DNA of 64,000 nt from Escherichia phage iGC_PHA_EC001 (OR437326.1), one strand, 5' to 3'; positions 3,142-36,687 are shown, counted from the first letter of the stretch. Numbers and translations: made by a program. The notes: a model not told the origin generated them from the sequence alone.

Positions 3142-4083
3142 TTAATAACCTCCTTCAAAAGGCTTAACTACATGTTGATTAGCTTTAAAACGTTCAACAT
3201 AGTCGTTTTCGCCCATGTTTTCATATAGCTTAGTAACAACATAAAAGTTTTCCCAAGCATATTCCCTAAACCAACCACTAGTGATGGATGTGCAGACTTT
3301 AGATAAAGCCATTATAAAACTTTGCTTAGGGGTTGGACCTCCGATCTCTTCACCGAAAGGAATTTGTGAACGTTCCAAAGCCAAAACACACGCTTCTTCA
3401 TAAACACCTAACAGGCGCACATGTTTTGGTTGAGCAAAAAACTTTTCTTTGCTGGTCATAACTTCACTTCCATCTTTCATATAAGATTTATATGCTGGAG
3501 CATCCATTACCGCGATTGCTTCATGGATAGAATCATGATCATAAACATACGGAACCTCATCCCCTTTAAAGAAGTCTTTACTTTTTACGTTTAAGTTCGG
3601 ATGAGAGTAAGTGTATGTTTCTTTCTCACGCAACTCATAAATACTCTTAAGATTTTCTGGGATCTTTGCACCCAGTGACCGCATGAAATGAATATCTTTC
3701 ATAGTTTTAAAGAAGTGAGGACTATCCTTTTTAAAACGATGACTCATTTTAAGAAGGTAGAGCACATCTAAAGGAGCAACAACATGTCCAGCGTAAGTTC
3801 GACGAACATCATCAGAATCTTCACAATAGCTAATCAAAGCTTCTGTGCTATCTCCTTGAGAAGCAATATCGTATTCCAAATGTGCACCAGCTATCATTTT
3901 GACATGGCCTTTGTTTCCTTTACGTTCTACAAGTTCAACAAACTCCTCTTGAGAGAACATTTTTGATAATTCTTCCCACTCTTGTTCTGTACACAGGTAA
4001 TCTAAATCTACACAAGGGCGATACAAGTCTTTTCCCATGTCCATAGCATGAATTTGCAATGCACGGCTACCAATTAACACCAT
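3142..4083 (-). CDS. hypothetical protein with possible Pol-beta-type nucleotidyltransferase fold
   Basis: N-terminal LIGSRALQIH...CVDLDYL fits hG[GS]...DxD minimal nucleotidyltransferase signature; 313 aa; GAGGAG RBS. Confidence 0.45.
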   Translation of the reverse strand: MVLIGSRALQIHAMDMGKDLYRPCVDLDYLCTEQEWEELSKMFSQEEFVELVERKGNKGHVKMIAGAHLEYDIASQGDSTEALISYCEDSDDVRRTYAGHVVAPLDVLYLLKMSHRFKKDSPHFFKTMKDIHFMRSLGAKIPENLKSIYELREKETYTYSHPNLNVKSKDFFKGDEVPYVYDHDSIHEAIAVMDAPAYKSYMKDGSEVMTSKEKFFAQPKHVRLLGVYEEACVLALERSQIPFGEEIGGPTPKQSFIMALSKVCTSITSGWFREYAWENFYVVTKLYENMGENDYVERFKANQHVVKPFEGGY

Positions 4084-28632: not shown

Positions 28633-28853
28633 TAGTCCTCCCATTTAAAAACTGAAATTTTCAATCTGTTACACACTTCATCCAAATCTGCGTCGAGTAA
28701 CGTTGTAGATGTTGCCAACATATAATCAATGCTTGTGAAACCTTGCCCTTTGGCATAGTCAAGCATATCTTCATACATATCTTCAAGATCACCGTCATCA
28801 AAAGTAGCTAGAAAATCCTCGTCCCCGCTACGAACATAAAATGCAGTACTCAT
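28632..28853 (-). CDS. hypothetical protein
   Basis: 73-aa acidic ORF; stop overlaps ligase start (TAATG). Confidence 0.4.
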   Translation of the reverse strand: MSTAFYVRSGDEDFLATFDDGDLEDMYEDMLDYAKGQGFTSIDYMLATSTTLLDADLDEVCNRLKISVFKWED

Positions 28854-29041
28854 TCATCTTCATCCCAAGATTCAAAAGCACAACAATCATCGGTTTCTAT
28901 AATACCGACACGTCCACAGGTATTGCAAGTGATTTTATCCCCGTAGAATAAATAATTTTTATCACCCTCTGTGTTTACAGTTATGTCATTACTACCACAA
29001 GGGCAAGTCAGCCAACCAACAACAACGATATCTTTTTTCAT
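28850..29041 (-). CDS. small Cys-rich zinc-ribbon-like protein
   Basis: CPCGS...CNTCGR...CC; RBS AAGGAGGG. Confidence 0.4.
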   Translation of the reverse strand: MKKDIVVVGWLTCPCGSNDITVNTEGDKNYLFYGDKITCNTCGRVGIIETDDCCAFESWDEDE

Positions 29042-29050
29042 AATCCCTCC

Positions 29051-29377
29051 TTAAGCATTCAGTTCGTTGTTGAGTTCGTAAATCTCTTCTTGAAGAGAAT
29101 CGATCTCTTCCTCCAAACGGGAGATCTCTTCTTTTAGATATACCATTTCAGATTCTTTCTCTTCTAACTCATTTTCAAATTTTACTTTATTCGCCTCATT
29201 TTCATAATGGAGTTCAGCATAATCATCGCGCATTTGTTCAATAAGATGAATCAGAGACAAGATGTAATTATCTCCCGTTTCATCACGCCACTCTTCACCG
29301 TGGCGGAGAATGGTAATTCGTCCAGTATCTTCATCTAAAATTGTCTCATATTTACGATCATCTGTATAAATCTGCAT
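29051..29377 (-). CDS. hypothetical coiled-coil protein
   Basis: heptad-like EISRLEEEIDSLQEEIYELNNEL; RBS AAGGAGAAATA. Confidence 0.45.
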   Translation of the reverse strand: MQIYTDDRKYETILDEDTGRITILRHGEEWRDETGDNYILSLIHLIEQMRDDYAELHYENEANKVKFENELEEKESEMVYLKEEISRLEEEIDSLQEEIYELNNELNA

Positions 29378-29386
29378 TATTTCTCC

Positions 29387-29791
29387 TTATTGAAGTTTAA
29401 GTGAACCACGAAGACGCTTCTCTTGCTGATCACGAATATATTGTGGAACCTCGTGAATTGAATCATTACAGTGCCTATTTTCAACAACTAAAGAGATAAC
29501 TTGATAACCAAACTCTTCAGCAAGAGCTAGATAAGGTTTAAGTTCTTTCTCTGTGGTTGAAGTGTTAGAAACAATAATCTTGTTAAGATTAGATGCCATA
29601 GCATCACGAACAATACTCTGACACCATGCGTGTGCTTTACCTACATTTTCTGGCTTCCAATCGTAAACACCACTTTCTGTGTAATGATATTGATCTGCCT
29701 CACAGATAGGCCAATAACCTTCAGAAATAATTTCTGCTACCGTAGATTTACCAGCACCTGAAACGCCACGTAAAATGATAAGTTGTTTCAT
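29387..29791 (-). CDS. P-loop polynucleotide 5'-kinase-like protein (T4 Pnk kinase-domain-like)
   Basis: Walker A LRGVSGAGKST; overall resemblance to N-terminal kinase domain of T4 Pnk; directly downstream of RNA ligase gene. Confidence 0.55.
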   Translation of the reverse strand: MKQLIILRGVSGAGKSTVAEIISEGYWPICEADQYHYTESGVYDWKPENVGKAHAWCQSIVRDAMASNLNKIIVSNTSTTEKELKPYLALAEEFGYQVISLVVENRHCNDSIHEVPQYIRDQQEKRLRGSLKLQ

Positions 29792-30724
29792 TTATCCTCC
29801 AAAGAAGTTTTCGATTTTTTCACGTCGCTCTTGCTGATTTAAAGCAGCCCATTGAGTCTTCGTAAAATTATTTCGAATCCATTCTAACAAAGCGTAATAT
29901 TCTTCGTCAACAATTTGTTTGGCATTTTTTGGATTATCCCAAATCAGATCCCACTTTTTATCTCCACCGCGCATAAGAAACTTCTTAGTAAGATAGTATG
30001 GTGACTTAATCTTTAAGAGTAAGTTAAACGGATAGTTTGTTTCACGAACTACAAACCCTTCGTGTTTACAATGTTTAGACATTTCAACAACATCTGAAAA
30101 CTTAACCATTGGATGAACTTCAGGACGCTTAAATTTGGTGACAGAAGCAATTCCATCAAGAGCACCTTCAGGTAACATAAAACTTGTCCCATCAGGGTTT
30201 TGAATTCTGGCACCAATTAAGTATGCACCTGGTTCTTCTTCGACAATATGCGGATCAGAAGGATCACAGATTTCAAAAAGGAAAGTTGCTTTTGCACTCT
30301 CTGTCCATTTGATGAAGTGTTCTATGTCATCACACTCTGAAACAATACGATTCTTTGCAATACTTGCAAAATCTGATTCAAGGCTTCCTGTTGTCGATAC
30401 AATAAGTTGACCTTTATATACACCTACAGAGGCCATAAAACCATTTACTTTACGAACCACATCTACAAATTCATCCGCTGGTAGATCTGTGCCATTCTCA
30501 AAACGATTAAAAATCTTAGTGAAAGGCCAAATAACAACATTGTCATCAGCATCAACAACGATTCCGCGACATTCTAGAAGACGAGAATCAATGTTCCATA
30601 GGTTATCCCAGAAAACTTTGTTCTTATACTTAAGAACAGATAGACCAGAATATTCTCCTTCTTTATATGTTTTCTTATGAACTAAACCTTTTTCAACCAA
30701 ATCGTCGCAATTAAATTTAGTCAC
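29792..30724 (-). CDS. RNA ligase (T4 Rnl1/RnlA-like)
   Basis: LLECRGIVVD (T4 Rnl1 LPDALECRGIMFE), nucleotidyl-lysine motif RKVNGFM (T4 KEDGSL), STTGS (T4 SKGS); GTG start after AAAGGAGAG RBS. Confidence 0.65.
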   Translation of the reverse strand: MTKFNCDDLVEKGLVHKKTYKEGEYSGLSVLKYKNKVFWDNLWNIDSRLLECRGIVVDADDNVVIWPFTKIFNRFENGTDLPADEFVDVVRKVNGFMASVGVYKGQLIVSTTGSLESDFASIAKNRIVSECDDIEHFIKWTESAKATFLFEICDPSDPHIVEEEPGAYLIGARIQNPDGTSFMLPEGALDGIASVTKFKRPEVHPMVKFSDVVEMSKHCKHEGFVVRETNYPFNLLLKIKSPYYLTKKFLMRGGDKKWDLIWDNPKNAKQIVDEEYYALLEWIRNNFTKTQWAALNQQERREKIENFFGG

Positions 30725-30725
30725 A

Positions 30726-31277
30726 TTACTCTCCTTTGATTATTTTGTGATGGTCTACAGTTACGATATCTCGTTTACTCATCATAGAAATTATCTCATC
30801 AAAATGTAAGATTTTTCCGTGTGCATCCCAACCCACATCTAACATTTTACCATAAGCTTCATCAGGGAAAGATCCGTGGGAATGCCCGTGTAGCATGATT
30901 GATCCACGACCTTGTTTATTCCAGGAGGCTATAGGGTAATGGCTTAAGACGAAGAACAGCTTCTGATATTTCACTTCGTCATAATACACCACTTCTCCAT
31001 ACTCTGCAAGCACTTCTCGGTGTTTGCTGTAATCATGGTTCCCAACACAATAAGTGATATCCCCTTGGAGGCGGGAAGCAATCTTACGGGTATCTTCTTC
31101 AGTCCCGAAACAGAAGTCACCCAAATGCCACATCTTGACACCTGGACTCGTAGCGCATTTATTCCATGCTTCGATCAGTGCTTCTGTCATGTGGTCCATA
31201 TCTTCCCACGGTCGATATTCAGGAGCAAACTCTCGTATACGTTTGTGCATAAAATGCAAATCACTTGTAATAAACAT
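30726..31277 (-). CDS. calcineurin-like metallophosphoesterase (putative RNA-end phosphatase/phosphodiesterase)
   Basis: motifs SDLHF, GDF, GNHD, HGHSH in order; operon-like with RNA ligase and kinase. Confidence 0.65.
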   Translation of the reverse strand: MFITSDLHFMHKRIREFAPEYRPWEDMDHMTEALIEAWNKCATSPGVKMWHLGDFCFGTEEDTRKIASRLQGDITYCVGNHDYSKHREVLAEYGEVVYYDEVKYQKLFFVLSHYPIASWNKQGRGSIMLHGHSHGSFPDEAYGKMLDVGWDAHGKILHFDEIISMMSKRDIVTVDHHKIIKGE

Positions 31278-31633
31278 TAGTATAATCCCTCGCTAAATAG
31301 GTCACGATCATGACCATTACGTTCGTAGTCAATCTGGTCTGCGTGTTTTGCAATAATGTATGCATCTTCACGACTCCACCAATTGTAGTATTGATCAATA
31401 AAACCTTGATTGTTTGGAAGACAATGCACTTTATCAAGCACACCTGCTTCTTTCAATACATTCAATTGTGCAGATAATACAGGATTTGCATGTCGAACAC
31501 AAGGAATAATTAACTCTTCACCATTATTCAAAATATACTTATTTGCAGCACAGACGATAACACGTTGCGCATAATGACCCTCACCCATCCAGGTAAGAGG
31601 TTGGTAACAAATGTTGTTTTCAATACCACTCAT
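31277..31633 (-). CDS. hypothetical protein
   Basis: 118-aa ORF, RBS GAGAGGAGG. Confidence 0.5.
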   Translation of the reverse strand: MSGIENNICYQPLTWMGEGHYAQRVIVCAANKYILNNGEELIIPCVRHANPVLSAQLNVLKEAGVLDKVHCLPNNQGFIDQYYNWWSREDAYIIAKHADQIDYERNGHDRDLFSEGLY

Positions 31634-31639
31634 TGTTTC

Positions 31640-31783
31640 CTAATCCTCCTCTCTTAAGTTATCCTCGAAAAAACTAGTATCTGGAAGTAAAAGATCATTA
31701 CTTGTGTCGGGCCAATCCTCTTCTTCTCGGTAGATAAAGTAACCTTCGTCCTCTTCTTGTTCCGACCAAACCGAATGATGCAT
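31640..31783 (-). CDS. hypothetical small acidic protein (47 aa, below ORF-track cutoff)
   Basis: manual translation MHHSVWSEQEEDEGYFIYREEEDWPD...; RBS TAAGGAGAGAAC. Confidence 0.35.
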   Translation of the reverse strand: MHHSVWSEQEEDEGYFIYREEEDWPDTSNDLLLPDTSFFEDNLREED

Positions 31784-31792
31784 GTTCTCTCC

Positions 31793-32149
31793 TTAATAGT
31801 GCACACGAATCATTTTAATACCATAACGCAGCATGGATTCTTTTGCAAGCATGAATTTATCCCCAGCAGCGGGATTAGAAGTATGCACGAAAATGGTAGG
31901 TGAACCAAAGCAAGGTTTACCAAACGCCAGAAGTTCTTCCAGGCACAGGAAAACATCATACCCATCTTGGTCAGAATCTTCACCCAAATCGTTGTCAAAA
32001 TGCCACTCGTCTACAAAACGATAACCCTTCTGCACATCATTCATGTAGCGAGAGGCAAGAAGTTCCTGTGATGTTTTAAACCAGATTGCATCTGGACAAC
32101 CATAATCTTTTGGATCACGTAAATCATCAAGCCAAATAATAGTACCCAT
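31793..32149 (-). CDS. hypothetical protein
   Basis: 118-aa ORF. Confidence 0.5.
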   Translation of the reverse strand: MGTIIWLDDLRDPKDYGCPDAIWFKTSQELLASRYMNDVQKGYRFVDEWHFDNDLGEDSDQDGYDVFLCLEELLAFGKPCFGSPTIFVHTSNPAAGDKFMLAKESMLRYGIKMIRVHY

Positions 32150-36599: not shown

Positions 36600-36687
36600 G
36601 GTGAGTTAATTCCGTAGGGGTAGCGGGGCAGACTGTAAATCTGTTATCATTGCGATTCGGGTGGTTCGACTCCATCACTCACCACCA
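36600..36687 (+). tRNA. tRNA-Tyr (anticodon GTA), type II
   Basis: acceptor GGTGAGT/ACTCACC, anticodon arm GCAGACTGTAAATCTGT (near identical to E. coli tRNA-Tyr), T-arm GGTGGTTCGACTCCATC, CCA. Confidence 0.65.

Follow-up and report, generated by a model that had tools for sequence, protein, structure and literature searches.

Three adjoining genes on the minus strand (29387-31277) of a 64,000-nucleotide stretch of Escherichia phage iGC_PHA_EC001 (OR437326.1), which we call the window, encode a metallophosphoesterase (MPE), an RNA ligase of the T4 Rnl1 family and a small P-loop kinase. In our opinion this cassette probably specifies a split RNA heal-and-seal pathway, which would mend tRNA or other RNA cut by host defences. 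There is a well-known precedent: T4 repairs tRNA with Pnkp and Rnl1, and in this way counters the anticodon nuclease PrrC. Permuted, conserved and fused neighbourhoods in other genomes independently tie the MPE, the ligase and the kinase together, and the fusions suggest a physical association of the three.

The genes are transcribed leftward in the order MPE (30726-31277, minus strand, 183 amino acids, ATG start), ligase (29792-30724, minus strand, 310 amino acids, GTG start) and kinase (29387-29791, minus strand, 134 amino acids). The initial annotation of this DNA had spoken of three consecutive leftward genes with abutting starts and stops, and the listing of open reading frames (ORFs) contains exactly these. 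Between the MPE stop and the ligase start there is a single base, the kinase start directly abuts the ligase stop, and the ribosome-binding site of the ligase gene, AAGGAGAG, lies within the final MPE codons, ahead of the GTG. The motifs that had been reported are all found in the translations, namely SDLHF (residues 5-9), GDF (53-55), GNHD (79-82) and HGHSH (130-134) in the MPE, LECRGI (49-54) and KVNGFM (92-97) in the ligase, and GVSGAGKST (9-17) in the kinase. More than 100 near-identical phage genomes have the same three coding sequences in their annotation, most often under the names 'phosphoesterase/metallophosphatase', 'putative RNA ligase' (occasionally 'RNA ligase/RNA repair') and 'ATPase'. 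Because of this annotation, strong PHROG matches and, for the ligase and the kinase, Pfam scores over cutoff, we take the three ORFs to be real genes and not chance ORFs. The window belongs to the Phapecoctavirus group (phAPEC8-like E. coli myophages, Stephanstirmvirinae); DIJ07P2 and PNJ1809-36 are 99% identical to it over the 6 kb compared, and Justusliebigvirus phages have a DNA block at about 29382-31825 in common with it, at 85-88% identity.

Gene neighbourhoods give evidence for a functional unit. Our ligase-anchored sample comprises 80 viral loci whose ligases are 41-88% identical to that of the window, and their ORFs were searched with profiles of the window proteins. Kinase and ligase form a single ORF in 13 of these loci; otherwise the kinase lies within 100 nt of the ligase in 35, at 101-1000 nt in 22 and more than 1 kb away in 4, and is absent from 6. 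The corresponding numbers for the MPE are 0, 31, 24, 11 and 14, and for the DNA ligase encoded downstream of the cassette 0, 0, 4, 40 and 36. Put together, the kinase is fused to the ligase or lies no more than 1 kb from it in 70 of the 80 loci and the MPE lies no more than 1 kb from it in 55, and all three genes occur together in 60, in both the MPE-ligase-kinase and the kinase-ligase-MPE order. The fusion was also checked directly: locus L054 encodes a 432-amino-acid protein in which AAA_33 and RNA_lig_T4_1 domains are joined.

The distances of the DNA ligase, which is never adjacent, fit shared synteny and not a functional unit. This matters for the idea that the cassette mends DNA, acting with the downstream DNA ligase on 3'-phosphate/5'-OH nicks or ends in phage DNA. 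It is true that T4 Pnk acts on DNA too, that the cassette is surrounded by replication, recombination and DNA ligase genes, and that a DNA ligase is found within 6 kb in 44 of the 80 loci. Nevertheless, a DNA ligase within 100 nt is found in none of them and one beyond 1 kb in 40, as shared synteny would have it, and phAPEC8, a phage from which the cassette is gone, has kept its DNA ligase. The sealing enzyme of the cassette itself falls into the Rnl1/Trl1 clade, from which DNA ligases are distant; where the kinase and the MPE have another partner it is again an RNA ligase family, and a cyanobacterial fusion of kinase, phosphatase and ligase domains lies near RtcB (all described below). We therefore regard DNA repair as quite improbable.

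The reverse search, anchored on the kinase or the MPE, covered 159 loci, among which 55 kinase-anchored and 48 MPE-anchored ones are full. Of the full loci, 39 of the 55 anchored on the kinase and 29 of the 48 anchored on the MPE have an RNA ligase within 6 kb. The nearby ligase comes from a second family, which combines an OB fold with PF09414, in 30 of the 159. In our opinion nothing argues more strongly for an action of the kinase and the MPE on RNA ends than this occurrence of the same pair with two unrelated sealing enzymes. The second ligase family deserves a description of its own: it has about 376 amino acids, with an N-terminal OB fold (PF21189) followed by PF09414 (for example L199 7048-8178), and occurs in about 30 other viral loci. 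In phages without a Rnl1-type ligase its neighbours are the same kinase and MPE families, and genes for NUDIX proteins, a DSP-type phosphatase and the cyclic-phosphate processing receiver (cRec) protein recur there.

Related arrangements are also seen in sequences assigned to bacteria. Four contigs from metagenome-assembled genomes of Cardiobacteriaceae (L252, L269, L276, L281) carry a kinase-ligase fusion of about 493 amino acids followed at once by an MPE of the phage type; these contigs were assigned by bacterial binning and are prophage or cellular. Leptolyngbyaceae cyanobacteria (L253-L284) encode a 712-amino-acid protein composed of an AAA_33 kinase, a lambda-phosphatase-type Metallophos domain (GDLVDRG) and a Rnl1-type ligase. 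In Leptolyngbya sp. PCC 7375 (L265 4768-6906) an RtcB gene lies 1.6 kb downstream of it, and no Hen1 gene was seen among the five flanking ORFs scanned. The domain order of this protein is that of bacterial Pnkp, but its sealing domain is of the Rnl1 family.

Two natural variants inform us on the dispensability of the cassette. The type phage of the genus, phAPEC8 (NC_020079), lacks window positions 28785-31090, a 2306-bp deletion at a TATCTTC microhomology. Its gp137 (L083 2533-2865) is a chimera that joins MPE residues 1-62 in frame to residues 26-73 of a downstream 73-amino-acid protein, on which ground we reject the idea of an insertion in the other phages. Apart from two-thirds of the MPE, phAPEC8 has thereby lost the ligase and the kinase as well as two further genes, one for a coiled-coil protein and one that is Lar-like. 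Phage phiWec188 (LC739537; L084 ~3436-3442) lacks exactly the kinase and the ligase (window 29388-30728), and retains the coiled-coil gene, which abuts the MPE gene there, as well as the MPE, the T4_Y16D-family gene and the cRec gene; phiWec181 apparently has the same absence. The kinase and the ligase behave as a unit in phiWec188. The cassette is dispensable on the isolation hosts of these phages, just as one would expect of a counter-defence module.

The ligase had been described as resembling T4 Rnl1, and our comparisons bear this out. It matches Pfam RNA_lig_T4_1 (PF09511) with 59.2 bits (cutoff 28.3) over model positions 1-227, and its PHROG match has E = 5e-70. The family has 2669 detected members, and a profile built from 23 homologues, 49-87% identical to the window protein, finds T4 Rnl1 as the sole match in the PDB (2C5U, 9DO4; E ~1e-10). 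Such a family profile is needed, as a PDB search with the single sequence returned nothing at E <= 1. Ten residues that are invariant in the 23 homologues (R53, K70, F72, K92, G95, E151, E222, G223, K238 and K240) align with R54, K75, F77, K99, G102, E159, E227, G228, K240 and K242 of T4 Rnl1, which we take to be essential from the mutagenesis of the Shuman laboratory. They cover nucleotidyl-transferase motifs I, III, IV and V together with the upstream Arg, Lys and Phe that are specific to Rnl1. K99 of T4 Rnl1 is the lysine that carries AMP, and its counterpart here is K92.

The predicted structure leads to the same relatives. The AlphaFold model of the ligase (pLDDT 89.9) finds fungal tRNA ligase Trl1 and T4 Rnl1 as its best Foldseek matches (E = 6e-13 to 5e-11), with the Trl1 ligase domain 9QW7 on top at 6e-13. 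Weaker tiers are Rnl3 (3e-9 or weaker), Rnl2 (3e-6), Rnl5 (3e-5) and DNA ligases (8e-5 or weaker), and no CthPnkp ligase-domain structure is among the best 50 fold matches. Had the protein aligned with DNA ligases or capping enzymes instead, the initial annotation would have been mistaken; the PDB profile search gave no such alignment, and DNA ligases are far weaker in the fold search. We propose that the protein is an ATP-dependent RNA ligase of the Rnl1 family and the predicted sealing enzyme of the cassette. Its family is represented in 642 isolated phage records, and the ligases of Pakpunavirus-type Pseudomonas phages are 37-39% identical to that of the window.

PHROG 562, the family to which such ligases are assigned, is named 'RNA ligase and tail fiber protein attachment catalyst' and placed in the category 'tail', and this name is repeated in many GenBank records. 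Since T4 Rnl1 (gp63) has a second activity in tail-fibre attachment, one could suppose that the role of the ligase is mainly structural, in assembly. We find this very hard to believe. The label has been passed on from T4 by homology, whereas the catalytic residues of the nucleotidyl transferase are all invariant across the family; an assembly factor would have no reason to be closely linked and fused to a kinase; and phAPEC8 and phiWec188 are viable isolates without the ligase gene.

The kinase matches Pfam AAA_33 with 41.6 bits (cutoff 27), PHROG 2071 ('ATPase') at 3e-56, PHROG 505 ('polynucleotide kinase') at 2e-8 and a deoxynucleoside monophosphate (dNMP) kinase family at 2e-4. Here too, a PDB search with the single sequence gave marginal P-loop matches only and a family profile, of 24 sequences, was needed. 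Its best match is Pnkp1 of the Pnkp1-Rnl-Hen1 repair complex (1.2e-7), followed by two stand-alone RNA 5'-OH kinases of tRNA splicing in Mucorales (9DRZ, 9D8A; ~1e-5), whose identity we take from the paper on these enzymes (PMC11571804). Next come the kinase domain of C. thermocellum Pnkp (4e-5) and T4 Pnk (1.6e-4). Adenylate kinase 9 first appears at 3.7e-4, and gluconate, thymidylate and other adenylate kinases at 1e-3 or weaker. The suggested resemblance to the kinase domain of T4 Pnk is thus sound, in that Pnkp1, the Mucorales kinases, CthPnk and T4 Pnk are the best solved relatives, every one an RNA 5'-OH kinase from a repair or splicing pathway, and the closest characterised relatives are polynucleotide kinases, with dNMP and nucleoside kinases weaker.

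The Walker A motif (G9-x-x-G12-x-G14-K15-S16) and D33 are invariant or nearly so in the 24-sequence alignment, D33 aligns with the position of the catalytic Asp of Pnkp1 and CthPnk, and R106, in an ENRH motif, is invariant. With 134 amino acids the protein consists of the kinase domain only and has no HAD (DxDxT) phosphatase domain, so it is indeed separate from such a phosphatase, as had been stated. We propose that it is a minimal stand-alone member of the polynucleotide 5'-OH kinase clade and, by prediction, the healer of the RNA 5' end. One GenBank record calls it a 'dephospho-CoA kinase', a label that goes back to a weak NCBIfam match (18.9 bits, with a cutoff of 65.6).

The metal-binding motifs of the MPE (D6xH8, G53D54, G79N80H81, H113 and G131H132xH134) are invariant in 30 homologues. 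The family profile matches Aquifex Aq_1665 (1XM7) in the PDB at 3.6e-23 and then, weakly, GpdQ and YfcE; with the same profile neither lambda-phosphatase nor the CthPnkp phosphatase gave a PDB match at E <= 1. Motif II reads GDFCFG and not GDxVDRG, and hhalign of the MPE against the cyanobacterial GDLVDRG-type domain gives a probability of 16%. PHROG 547 matches at 1e-55. The Pfam Metallophos_2 score, 24.2 bits, is under the cutoff of 27; at E <= 0.01, Metallophos_2 is matched by 16 of the 30 family members and Metallophos by 13. Membership in the PdeM family, a ligase-associated DNA-damage endonuclease, can be rejected (NCBIfam 16 bits, cutoff 150); NCBIfam gave no useful assignment for any of the three proteins.

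By these comparisons the MPE belongs to the Aq_1665 clade and not to the lambda-phosphatase/Pnkp clade. The initial annotation held that the phosphatase appears to be a metallophosphoesterase, as in bacterial Pnkp-type enzymes. The first part is correct, and the second stands at the level of the superfamily and fails at the level of the clade, given an Aq_1665-like protein without GDxVDRG. According to two papers, the metallophosphoesterases CthPnkp and lambda-phosphatase act as 2',3'-cyclic phosphodiesterases (PMC2190708, PMC1920235). We propose that the MPE of the cassette is the predicted healer of RNA 3' ends, that is a 2',3'-cyclic phosphodiesterase and/or a 3'-phosphatase; this role is suggested because of the genomic context and not by homology to a characterised enzyme.

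Taken as a pathway, the three proteins would act in a simple order. The MPE would turn a 2',3'-cyclic phosphate or 3'-phosphate end into a 3'-OH, possibly helped by the cRec protein encoded upstream. The 134-amino-acid kinase would then move a phosphate from a nucleoside triphosphate onto the 5'-OH, and the Rnl1-type ligase, adenylylated at Lys92, would pass AMP to the 5'-phosphate and join the ends. The substrate would be tRNA or other RNA broken by metal-independent host ribonucleases, and its repair would restore translation for the phage. The cassette would in this case be an accessory counter-defence module and not a core function.

Several points weigh against this reading and should be considered together. 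What we observe is the family membership of the ligase and the kinase, intact catalytic motifs in the three proteins, conserved linkage, fusions and dispensability; all activities of the enzymes, the part of the MPE at RNA 3' ends, tRNA as the substrate and the counter-defence role are what we infer. In the ligase, the position of T4 Rnl1 Lys119 is occupied by Thr112, which is invariant in the 23 homologues (VSTTG, as against FKSKG in T4). Its C-terminal region, some 65 residues of short helices (residues 242-307) modelled with lower confidence (pLDDT 68-90), is about half the size of the C-terminal domain of T4 Rnl1 (~120 amino acids), which is thought to confer tRNA specificity, and the model has no more than 285-288 alignment columns in common with T4 Rnl1. 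In the kinase, the position of T4 Pnk Arg38/CthPnk Arg41, three residues past the catalytic Asp and in those kinases in contact with the acceptor polynucleotide, is His36 and variable in the family (H, F, A, W); an invariant, family-specific Arg8 beside the P-loop might compensate for the lost Arg. The cassette is part of a long run of leftward genes for replication and recombination, and a promoter scan for a cassette-specific promoter did no better than on shuffled sequence. The sole strong leftward terminator is at 25577-25554, and we reject a stand-alone operon, there being no dedicated promoter or terminator.

The remaining points concern the MPE. Its Aq_1665-like clade has no characterised member. 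Its linkage to the ligase is looser than that of the kinase, with 13 of the 14 MPE-less loci belonging to the lineage with the kinase-ligase fusion, and about 40% of the full MPE-anchored loci (19 of 48) have no RNA ligase nearby. In phiWec188 it stands on its own. These observations bring us to what we see as the main alternative: only the kinase and the ligase would form a repair unit, and the MPE would have an independent job, such as degrading cyclic-nucleotide or ADP-ribose-derived defence signals or serving as a nuclease or nucleotidase, and be found beside the ligase through the clustering of accessory and anti-defence genes. The retention of the MPE in phiWec188, where exactly its two partners are absent, the 13 fusion loci without an MPE within 6 kb and the MPE-anchored loci without an RNA ligase are all in line with it. 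So is the rank of the diesterase GpdQ and of YfcE as the closest characterised structural relatives next to Aq_1665. Iyer et al. have further tied genes that recur nearby, those for NUDIX, cRec and DSP-phosphatase proteins, to nucleotide- and NAD-centred conflicts (PMC7824862).

Against such independence of the MPE, 31 of the 80 loci have its gene within 100 nt of the ligase and 55 have it within 1 kb, in either gene order, and the same MPE family follows the kinase-ligase fusion in Cardiobacteriaceae. The MPE and the kinase are paired also beside the different RNA ligase family, and an MPE domain of a different clade is fused between the kinase and ligase domains of the cyanobacterial proteins. 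Moreover, a kinase and a ligase without a 3'-phosphatase would be unable to mend breaks that end in a 2',3'-cyclic phosphate. All in all we consider an independent MPE unlikely, though clearly less so than DNA repair or tail-fibre attachment, and we retain the three-gene RNA repair pathway as the probable explanation.

Some neighbouring genes are relevant to this question. The cRec protein (31793-32149, minus strand, 118 amino acids) matches PF20274 with 51 bits (cutoff 27), and its gene, which the initial annotation did not mention, lies upstream of that for the MPE, at a distance of 516 bp that holds two small genes. Its acidic residues, in LDDxR and HxDND, are kept in 16 unique homologues. 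A cRec gene is present in 12 of the 80 ligase-anchored loci and lies within 100 nt of the ligase in 5; it is placed between the ligase and the kinase in six (L005-L009, L015), adjoins the MPE in L041 and the kinase in L050. Iyer et al. predicted cRec to be an enzyme that processes cyclic phosphate or cyclic ADP-ribose, and linked it to RNA ligases (PMC7824862). It is plausible that cRec is an accessory healer, which would open 2',3'-cyclic phosphate ends. Its membership in the module is uncertain, and its retention in phAPEC8 despite the deletion of the cassette weighs against it.

The gene that overlaps the MPE start (31277-31633) encodes a 118-amino-acid protein of the phrog_839/T4_Y16D family. 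We considered this protein as a fourth repair component and rejected it: it is found alongside the ligase in 3 of the 80 loci only, it is retained in phAPEC8, its distant homologues are in unrelated contexts, and its model is confident and has no solved structural relative.

The initial annotation also mentioned a second ligase-like gene about 0.8 kb downstream with motif I KLNGLR. There is indeed such a gene (27517-28632/28644, minus strand, 755 bp downstream of the cassette), and it encodes an ordinary ATP-dependent DNA ligase (PF01068 38 bits, PHROG 114 1e-74). Its motif I has Asn where nearly all relatives carry Asp (KxDGxR). The Asn form is found in 3 of the 41 unique sequences compared, the window included, and seems to be lineage-specific. 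The Rnl1-type ligase likewise has Asn at that position of motif I (KVNG).

Directly downstream of the kinase lies a gene for a 108-amino-acid coiled-coil protein (29051-29377, minus strand; PHROG 18076, 'hol-like chemotaxis'). Just downstream of the cassette there is also a gene for a 63-amino-acid zinc-ribbon protein (28850-29041, minus strand), which is weakly Lar-like (TIGR03655, a family for restriction alleviation, 22.5 bits, cutoff 39.6). For T4, the trigger of the PrrC anticodon nuclease is an anti-restriction peptide; that the juxtaposition of a Lar-like gene and a repair cassette is meaningful is a speculation on our part.

As regards tRNA, the phage has an eleventh tRNA gene at 36600-36684 on the plus strand, which scores 39 bits with Rfam and was missed by ARAGORN. 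It is 85 nt long with a long variable arm and an unusual D-arm insertion, and its anticodon loop, CUGUAAA, makes it read as tRNA-Tyr(GUA). The set consists of Met (two), Arg-UCU, Ser-GCU, Tyr, Asn, Thr, Gly, Gln, Pro and Ile; tRNA-Lys, the classic target of PrrC, was not seen in it by ARAGORN and Rfam. A separate observation concerns database records: GenBank entries named 'Campylobacter phage' (B15, A150, A110a, C7) and 'Acinetobacter phage vB_AbaM_ABPW7' have 86-96% DNA identity to E. coli phapecoctaviruses or justusliebigviruses, and we find their host labels doubtful.

Part of what we describe is already known. The T4 Pnkp/Rnl1 concept is established, the genes are labelled in GenBank, and tRNA repair has been inferred in print for a homologous pair. 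The paper in question deals with Pseudomonas phage Adele (Pakpunavirus), where tRNA repair was inferred from an adjoining RNA ligase and a 5'-kinase that 'lacks 3'-phosphatase domain', no partner being named (PMC12846349). Iyer et al. in 2021 predicted a role in phage RNA repair for calcineurin-like phosphatases and for cRec (PMC7824862). Both remarks are made at the level of annotation, and do not extend to a third partner of the Aq_1665 clade, linkage counts, fusions or deletion variants. Our literature search found no paper joining 'Phapecoctavirus' with 'RNA ligase', and a retron Eco2 paper that mentions Stephanstirmvirinae is not on RNA repair. The triad may already be described in Burroughs and Aravind 2016 (Nucleic Acids Research). 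What we add is the MPE of the Aq_1665 clade as a conserved third partner, quantified linkage, the swap of the ligase partner, the fusions and the deletion variants.

The cassette genes or their relatives occur in Stephanstirmvirinae, Vequintavirinae, Pakpunavirus-like Pseudomonas phages and phages of Vibrio and Acinetobacter, in hundreds of isolates. A broader proposal is conceivable, although we hold it with less confidence than the RNA repair pathway itself and would call it tentative. The triad of MPE, Rnl1-type ligase and mini-kinase, joined by cRec in some lineages, could be a widespread phage counter-defence that reverses tRNA cleavage by anticodon nucleases or other tRNA-targeting immune effectors. 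The Aq_1665-like MPE would then be a new 3' healer, cRec might open the cyclic phosphate, and phAPEC8 and phiWec188 would be more sensitive to such defences.

Defences that cleave tRNA keep turning up, among them PrrC, RloC, retron and Toprim/OLD-type effectors and the collateral cleavage by Cas13. No phage RNA repair pathway other than T4 Pnkp/Rnl1 is known to us to have been tested experimentally as a counter-defence, and the cassette, with its three genes, offers a compact candidate for another phage solution to tRNA cleavage. It is present in many coliphages that are candidates for therapy, in Klebsiella phages and in Pseudomonas phages. If the proposal is true, a function would be assigned to an orphan clade of metallophosphoesterases, and a minimal 134-amino-acid polynucleotide kinase and a compact Rnl1-type ligase would become possible reagents. 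It would also help to explain differences in host range among near-identical phages that differ by a cassette indel only.

How does the cassette compare with the systems that are known? Like T4 Pnkp and Rnl1, it is predicted from its genes to follow the order of 3' dephosphorylation, 5' phosphorylation and ATP-dependent sealing. Both ligases are members of PF09511 and the catalytic residues of T4 Rnl1 are conserved, the kinase falls into the clade of the N-terminal domain of T4 Pnk, and in both cases these are accessory functions of a phage. Unlike in T4, the kinase is a separate protein of 134 amino acids without the HAD domain and the putative phosphatase is a separate MPE; and the ligase, with 310 amino acids instead of the 374-375 of T4 Rnl1, has about half of the C-terminal domain and Thr at the position of Lys119. 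The T4 genes pseT and rnlA are not known to abut, unlike the three genes of the cassette.

With bacterial Pnkp/Hen1 and Pnkp1-Rnl-Hen1 (C. thermocellum, Capnocytophaga gingivalis) the cassette has in common a P-loop 5'-OH kinase, a binuclear MPE and an ATP-dependent ligase. It differs in the Aq_1665-like type of its MPE (GDFCFG), in the Rnl1 type of its ligase and in the use of separate polypeptides, and no homologue of the Hen1 methyltransferase was seen in the cassette or its immediate neighbours by Pfam and PHROG scans.

Fungal and plant Trl1 resembles the cassette in its ligase domain, which is the best structural match of the phage ligase. The cyclic phosphodiesterase of Trl1 is of the 2H family, and Tpt1 later takes off the 2'-phosphate; Pfam and PHROG scans saw no Tpt1/KptA in the scanned region. 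The predicted 3' healer of the phage is an MPE, unlike that of Trl1, a cyclic phosphodiesterase domain which leaves the 2'-PO4 needed by the Trl1 ligase, according to the paper on Mucorales (PMC11571804). According to that paper, tRNA splicing in Mucorales is itself split between a stand-alone ligase and a stand-alone RNA 5'-OH kinase, so an arrangement of separate polypeptides, as we find it in the phage, is a workable one (PMC11571804).

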